From NCBI RefSeq assembly GCF_003334815.1, contig NZ_QOWO01000089.1: DNA of 2,037 nucleotides; one strand, given 5' to 3'. The notes beneath the pieces are model-generated. The model searched no databases. It saw nothing but the letters and a program-made list of their open reading frames with translations, and had not been told where the DNA came from. The position numbers and the translations under genes were made by a program. Within the stretch, counting starts at the first letter, position 1. The number at the start of each line of letters is the position of its first letter. This DNA is from Escherichia coli. Lineage in GTDB: Bacteria > Pseudomonadota > Gammaproteobacteria > Enterobacterales > Enterobacteriaceae. Below are positions 1,202 to 1,305 of this stretch, piece after piece.

Positions 1202-1292
1202 GTATGTAAGGATAATCAAACATCGTGTGCGCTGATGGCAGAGTAGGTGGAGGACTCCAGACAGTCAAACGATAGAAAAAGATAGCCTTTAT

Positions 1293-1297
1293 GGAGG
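1293..1297 (+). promoter_or_regulatory. Shine-Dalgarno (GGAGG) for the ATG at 1306
   Basis: ggagg at 1293-1297, 8-nt spacer, ATG at 1306. The ATG at 1291 used by the ORF track overlaps this SD and is probably not the true start. Confidence 0.5.
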
Positions 1298-1305
1298 TTC
1301 CTGCA

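Follow-up and report, generated by a model that had tools for sequence, protein, structure and literature searches.

In the classical model of C-terminal displacement at rhs loci, the displaced tip keeps a piece of the Rhs core ahead of it (Jackson et al. 2009, PMC2935791), the outcome that a single crossover with a circular intermediate would give. In typical orphans, a stretch of core is kept together with most or all of the old tip; a newer tip/immunity unit precedes the older one in the same rhs gene, and the older immunity gene keeps its own translation signals (PMC2935791, PMC3150448). Expressed orphan immunity genes are on record in CDI/Rhs loci (Poole et al. 2011, PMC3150448). The two toxin families met below have each been assigned an immunity partner: Tox-JAB-2 (DUF4329) is paired with Imm-NTF2-2, which corresponds to the rhsB tip with yhhH, and Ntox34, whose conserved motifs run from GNxxD to a final WxCxH, is paired with Imm-HEAT (Zhang et al. 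2012, PMC3482391). The Ntox34 arrangement is seen in E. coli K-12 at rhsA–yibA (b3593/b3594), where yibA begins 20 nt after the toxin stop codon.

We compared with these systems a 2037-base stretch of E. coli DNA (the window), which matches the rhsB loci of E. coli K-12 and many other strains at 99.8–99.9% identity and which, judged by its sequence, is the K-12-type rhsB locus. RefSeq annotates under these matches, in order, the 3′ end of rhsB, yhhH, a HEAT-repeat pseudogene and the ISEc1/H-rpt transposase gene yhhI; coordinates below refer to the plus strand unless stated otherwise. The rhsB 3′ end (1–846) is made up of the end of the conserved Rhs core (1–323, 56% GC), recognized by homology common to rhsA, yibJ and rhsD, and of an AT-rich toxin tip (324–846) that annotation and Pfam mark as Tox-JAB-2/DUF4329. 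The immunity gene for this tip, yhhH (818–1201), is annotated as Imm-NTF2-2, and PF15631 is found on all of its homologues. Downstream lies yibA′ (1306–1652; yrhC, b4552, in MG1655), which by its pseudogene annotation and by alignment with yibA is the first 347 nt of an Imm-HEAT gene. Homology to yibA ends at 1652, and the annotated left end of ISEc1 (H-rpt) occupies 1653–2037, with yhhI starting at 1797.

Between yhhH and yibA′ is a spacer of 104 nt (1202–1305). The initial annotation had drawn its limits correctly, from the TAA of yhhH (1199–1201) to the ATG of the yibA-like gene (1306), and had proposed that the spacer may be a relic of the 3′ end of a displaced toxin. We find that this holds for a 32-nt segment of the right half (1254–1285) and fails for the left half (1202–1253). 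The spacer as a whole is very probably a composite scar of recombination, left by displacement of an Rhs tip and without a function of its own at this locus. The process is ordinary Rhs C-terminal displacement with retention of an orphan immunity gene, a known phenomenon, and involves no new element or mechanism.

The right half of the spacer and the 3′ end of rhsA

Comparison with the K-12 rhsA–yibA junction, which the initial annotation had suggested, gives a match for 1254–1305 and none for 1202–1253. Positions 1254–1305 give an ungapped alignment with the final 32 nt of rhsA and the 20-nt rhsA–yibA leader (49 of 52 identical, E ~2e-18). By BLAST, the ungapped match to rhsA 3′ end, leader and yibA extends from 1254 to 1652 at 97.2% identity, so that the same DNA continues through yibA codons 1–115. 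In alignments with K-12 MG1655 and ETEC1731, both of which have an intact toxin directly before yibA, identity starts abruptly at 1254 and runs on into yibA. The locus departs from K-12 rhsA–yibA upstream of the WxCxH His codon, where yhhH and 52 nt take the place of the tip, and in carrying three substitutions within the 52 nt of relic and leader and a yibA that is truncated and has a nonsense codon.

The relic itself (1254–1285) corresponds to the final 10 codons of the RhsA (Ntox34) tip with the TAG, and is identical to the K-12 rhsA 3′ end at 31 of 32 nt, in the same frame and with the same stop codon. RhsA ends in ...KAWNCRHSRQSNDKKR-stop; the relic reads (D)SRQSNDRKR-stop, of which SRQSNDRKR-stop is encoded by 1256–1285, versus HSRQSNDKKR-stop in K-12 RhsA. 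The His codon of WxCxH, CAC in rhsA and gAC in the window, is split by the breakpoint. The RhsA tip matches Ntox34 (PF15606) with an E value of 9e-44, and of the relic only the first five residues fall within the model. When the relic was examined for this domain, the last 5 of 80 model positions were left and the His codon of WxCxH was destroyed; the region is not a toxin gene.

Beyond the relic lies the native rhsA–yibA intergenic leader (1286–1305), 18 of whose 20 nt are identical to K-12 and which preserves the 20-nt spacing from rhsA stop to yibA start. A Shine-Dalgarno sequence, GGAGG, is found at 1293–1297, 8 nt before the yibA ATG. One of the leader substitutions, G to A, converts the GTG of the K-12 leader into ATG at 1291–1293, creating an in-frame start five codons upstream of the annotated yibA start; the new ATG overlaps GGAGG and is common to all copies of the scar examined.

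The relic thus sits downstream of an rhs gene, rhsB, and of that gene's own immunity gene, yhhH, both annotated immediately upstream, and is followed after the native leader by its cognate immunity gene, here yibA′. In this order, and in the translation signals kept by the immunity gene, the locus resembles the displaced orphans described above. Unlike typical orphans, it has 10 tip codons and no demonstrable core; what remains is not an orphan module but an orphan immunity gene, yibA′, preceded by a 32-nt toxin stump. The stump upstream of yrhC is without annotation in the records examined, and the annotated yrhC, directly 3′ of the spacer, covers only 1306–1551 of the yibA′ fragment. Downstream homology between RhsA and RhsB may be treated by Zhao et al. 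1993, and the rhsA stump may be a subject of papers from the Hill laboratory in the 1990s.

The left half of the spacer

The left half, 1202–1253, showed no similarity to the rhsA tip in the K-12 and ETEC1731 alignments, and its best local alignments within the last 1.3 kb of rhsA, none of them in the tip, score no better than chance. Its distribution follows that of yhhH. The 52-mer was detected in 2977 of 5426 complete E. coli genomes, with 80% or more of the 52 nt covered in each match, and every one of the copies listed or inspected (~45) lies directly 3′ of yhhH. No other match of ~20 nt or more was found in E. coli genomes. Plasmids yielded only E. coli-like copies, phages nothing meaningful, and IMG/VR a single contig with the same E. 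coli arrangement. Divergent YhhH alleles, with 78–84% protein identity, all keep the same 104-nt spacer. On these data, 1202–1253 belongs with the incoming yhhH module and always travels with it. A GTDB genome scan with YhhH returned only two MAG contigs, both of E. coli-like DNA. They are labelled 'Flavobacterium psychrophilum' and 'Lachnospiraceae' and are 96–99.8% identical to the E. coli rhsB locus; contamination or mis-binning is the most likely source.

Paralogous Tox-JAB-2/Imm-NTF2-2 modules followed by displaced material are known at rhsD–ybbC–ylbH of K-12 and at a Salmonella locus (L016), with 71–76% nucleotide identity to the module in the window; the Salmonella module is 76% identical to the rhsB tip plus yhhH. 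Its homology extends to 1208, 7 nt past the yhhH stop, and the first 8 nt of 1202–1253 are shared. Both paralogues have a core fragment 0–8 nt past the immunity stop, beginning LPGQQYDEE... in Salmonella and LALMDADG... in K-12 ylbH. In the window, by contrast, the immunity gene is followed by a 44-nt segment (1210–1253) and the Ntox34 stump.

The 44-nt segment includes most of a GC-richer patch that the initial annotation had pointed out. The patch is real: 1221–1263 has 58% GC versus 33% in yhhH and 35% in yibA′. It is not unique, as the top 43-nt window of the AT-rich part is 1616–1658, with 60% GC. As evidence of a toxin relic the patch does not stand up, since 33 of its 43 bases fall in the left half, where similarity to the rhsA tip is absent. 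That portion, 1221–1253, has 61% GC; rhs tips range from 33 to 37%, and Rhs core has 56%. As targets for 1202–1253 we used 15 variants of the 3′ end of the Rhs core, the whole of rhsD and parts of rhsA and rhsB; the best local alignments did not rise above chance (shuffle test against all core variants, P 0.14–0.40). For 1210–1258 against the starts of the ylbH and Salmonella fragments, P ranged from 0.013 to 0.45, varying with scoring, target and query range. The resemblance of 1221–1258 to core-fragment starts is thus weak, and we treat the idea that 1210–1253 is the core start of an orphan as unproven.

A 14-nt sequence, TATGTAAGGATAAT, occurs twice as an exact direct repeat, at 521–534 inside the rhsB toxin tip (codons ICKDN) and at 1203–1216, right after the yhhH stop. 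It is the sole repeat of at least 14 nt in the window (shuffle P ~0.002). The copies bracket 668 nt (682 nt start-to-start) that contain the distal toxin domain and all of yhhH, and TGGCAGA follows both, at offsets of 2 and 19 nt. The repeat could have arisen as templated filler where an illegitimate junction formed, or be what is left of another DUF4329 fragment; it may also be coincidental and based on a shared TATGTA, which is present in Salmonella too. Taking the first of these further, 1210–1253 and TATGTAAGGATAAT might be templated filler DNA from non-homologous joining of the right end of the module inside the old Ntox34 tip, an origin that we think rather unlikely. Were it true, the tip would not have been replaced by the homologous circular-intermediate route, and the spacer would directly record in its sequence an illegitimate junction formed by template switching during Rhs tip exchange. 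We rejected the assignment of 1202–1253 to a second DUF4329 toxin fragment (VCKDN / IVCADGRV): a 14-nt repeat and a 7-nt match across a 17-nt insertion are too weak a basis for it.

Distribution, history and alternative readings

To map the junction in the population, we used the final 150 nt of K-12 rhsA together with the leader as a query against the 5426 complete E. coli genomes and found matches in 3137. The intact rhsA–yibA junction is present in 1754, and in ~1383 the best match is to the relic only; all 25 of the relic-only matches listed start at the same base (query position 119, window 1254). By subtraction, ~1600 genomes are K-12-like, with an intact rhsA–yibA and the scar at rhsB, and ~1400 have the scar in place of the rhsA tip. 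In an evenly spaced sample, 19 of 38 full matches precede a gene annotated as intact yibA. Strain 2013C-3181 provides an example: at its rhsA locus, between yibF and yibH, the scar is present with an identical 104-nt spacer, in the order rhs (DUF4329 tip), yhhH, spacer, intact yibA, yibJ-like fragment, yibG. The shared breakpoint at 1254 in every listed copy suggests that the junction formed once, and the sequences fit a single founding event with later spread to or from a second locus; gene conversion between the rhsA and rhsB loci, in either direction, could have carried it. Today 55% of complete E. coli genomes carry this one breakpoint, which occurs at two chromosomal loci.

These observations suggest the following history. 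The ancestor would have been an rhs gene with an Ntox34 tip and, 20 nt on, the HEAT-repeat immunity gene yibA, as at K-12 rhsA–yibA. A foreign module consisting of the Tox-JAB-2 tip, yhhH and a short 3′ flank would then have arrived, and the old tip would have been lost save for its last 32 nt, either during the insertion or through later deletion. The loss would have spared the stop codon and, beyond it, the 20-nt leader with its Shine-Dalgarno sequence as well as yibA. As 1202–1253 shows no significant similarity to core, this history requires either a further deletion or a right-hand junction that was non-homologous. The junction, presumably formed once, would now be present at two loci: at rhsA the scar precedes an intact, presumably still translatable, orphan yibA, and at rhsB, the locus of the window, yibA would have been killed later by a nonsense mutation and insertion of ISEc1. 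On this account the spacer is a clean, datable example of a swapped Rhs toxin tip whose old immunity gene was retained. Erosion seems to have removed the toxin part and spared the stop–leader–SD–start unit of the immunity gene, a pattern that fits selection for useful orphan immunity.

How much of the spacer is relic bears on this history. If, in the widest form of the initial reading, the whole of it, including the patch at 1221–1263, came from the 3′ end of a displaced RhsA-type tip, similarity to rhsA should not stop where it does. The argument for such an origin is one of position, and 10 nt of the patch (1254–1263) lie in the true relic. Similarity is nevertheless gone left of 1254 in both rhsA alignments, the best matches of the left half in rhsA fall outside the tip, and all listed relic matches across E. 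coli begin at 1254. Translation in the frame of the relic meets stops at 1244–1246 and 1283–1285, and the residues left of the relic bear no similarity to ...AKDAKSTQKAWNCRH. We give this reading almost no credence. A different proposal is that the left half is a relic of another kind, with 1210/1221–1253 as what erosion has left of the 5′ start of an orphan (core fragment, Ntox34 tip and yibA) that lay directly behind yhhH; a later internal deletion would have run from the first core-fragment codons to the last 10 tip codons. This refines the main explanation and is not contrary to it. It draws on the position of the core fragments right after the immunity stop in ybbC/ylbH and Salmonella, on the identity of 1229–1238 (GCGCTGATGG) to the first ylbH codons (ALM) in the same frame as the RhsA relic, on an 18/22 alignment of 1237–1258 with the start of the Salmonella fragment, and on the core-like GC content of 1221–1253, unlike that of the tips. 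The resemblance to core is not statistically secure, however, by either set of P values, the ylbH and Salmonella alignments point to different parts of the core, and no intermediate, in which yhhH would be followed by a longer Ntox34 remnant, was found among the 5426 E. coli genomes. We regard an orphan core start as a real possibility, though one that is probably not correct.

The polarity of the exchange might also be reversed, with yhhH–spacer–yibA as the ancestral order and the Ntox34 tip of rhsA inserted later, adopting the last 32 nt as its tail. In keeping with this, 5 of the 10 relic codons lie past the end of the Pfam Ntox34 model. Yet the tail after WxCxH is kept in Salmonella Ntox34, which ends SNDRKR as the relic does, and in a divergent, 70%-identical Ntox34 fragment that is followed 1 nt later by a HEAT-like partner of 270 aa that shares 22% identity with YibA along its length (E 2e-9). 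This conservation identifies the relic as the cut-off 3′ end of a toxin and not the reverse. The breakpoint, moreover, cuts inside the WxCxH His codon, and the spacer frame is closed by a TAG three codons upstream. Reversed polarity is in our judgement extremely improbable. Finally, the spacer might be functional, as a promoter, terminator, leader or small RNA controlling the downstream immunity gene. The preserved Shine-Dalgarno sequence and 20-nt leader speak for this, and about half of the carriers have an intact yibA downstream, so that in these 1286–1305 probably still functions in translation initiation. Against it, no promoter-like or terminator-like site was found in 1202–1305, the predicted RNA fold is no better than that of shuffled sequences (z = –0.03), and the spacer has no match in Rfam at E ≤ 1. 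In the window, the downstream gene is a pseudogene, and an IS3 insertion in the spacer is tolerated in one strain. A regulatory role for the spacer is accordingly very unlikely, and we retain its interpretation as a scar of tip displacement.

Fate of yibA and observations at related loci

The state of yibA differs between the two loci. Relative to yibA, yibA′ has an AAA to TAA change at 1549–1551 and loses homology at 1652, where ISEc1 follows; it is annotated as a pseudogene ('internal stop; missing C-terminus'), and its NCBIfam match is to PRK09687 over residues 1–81. With its immunity gene closed by a nonsense codon and cut by ISEc1, the spacer in the window is a non-functional fossil. We counted eight private substitutions in the 347 nt of yibA′, including the nonsense change, versus none relative to K-12 in the intact yibA of 2013C-3181. 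The substitutions in yibA′ fit relaxed selection after truncation by ISEc1 at 1652/1653. In the rhsA-locus version, the stop–leader–SD–ATG unit most likely still serves translation of the orphan yibA, consistent with the expressed orphan immunity genes of CDI/Rhs loci.

The statement in the initial annotation that the spacer holds no ORF of useful length is true of the plus strand. On the minus strand, an ORF of 118 aa with a TTG start (1146–1502) crosses the whole spacer and is antisense to the end of yhhH, the spacer and yibA′. NCBIfam gives no match for it, it is unannotated in the RefSeq records examined, and it is probably spurious.

In strain VTB97432v (L004, 3044–4373), an IS3-family element lies inside the spacer, and the yibA downstream is still annotated as intact. 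Positions corresponding to window 1239–1244 are found on both sides of the element, which may reflect target duplication, chance overlap or both.

At some E. coli rhsA loci (L006, 2578–3116; L013–L015, 2961–3500), the Tox-JAB-2 tip has in turn been cut back, leaving its last 87 nt before yhhH (from window 760). This stump is followed by the same spacer and an intact yibA and lies beneath newer tip/immunity units. These loci are stacks of eroded toxin ends with retained immunity genes, and the Tox-JAB-2 stump parallels the RhsA stump of the window.
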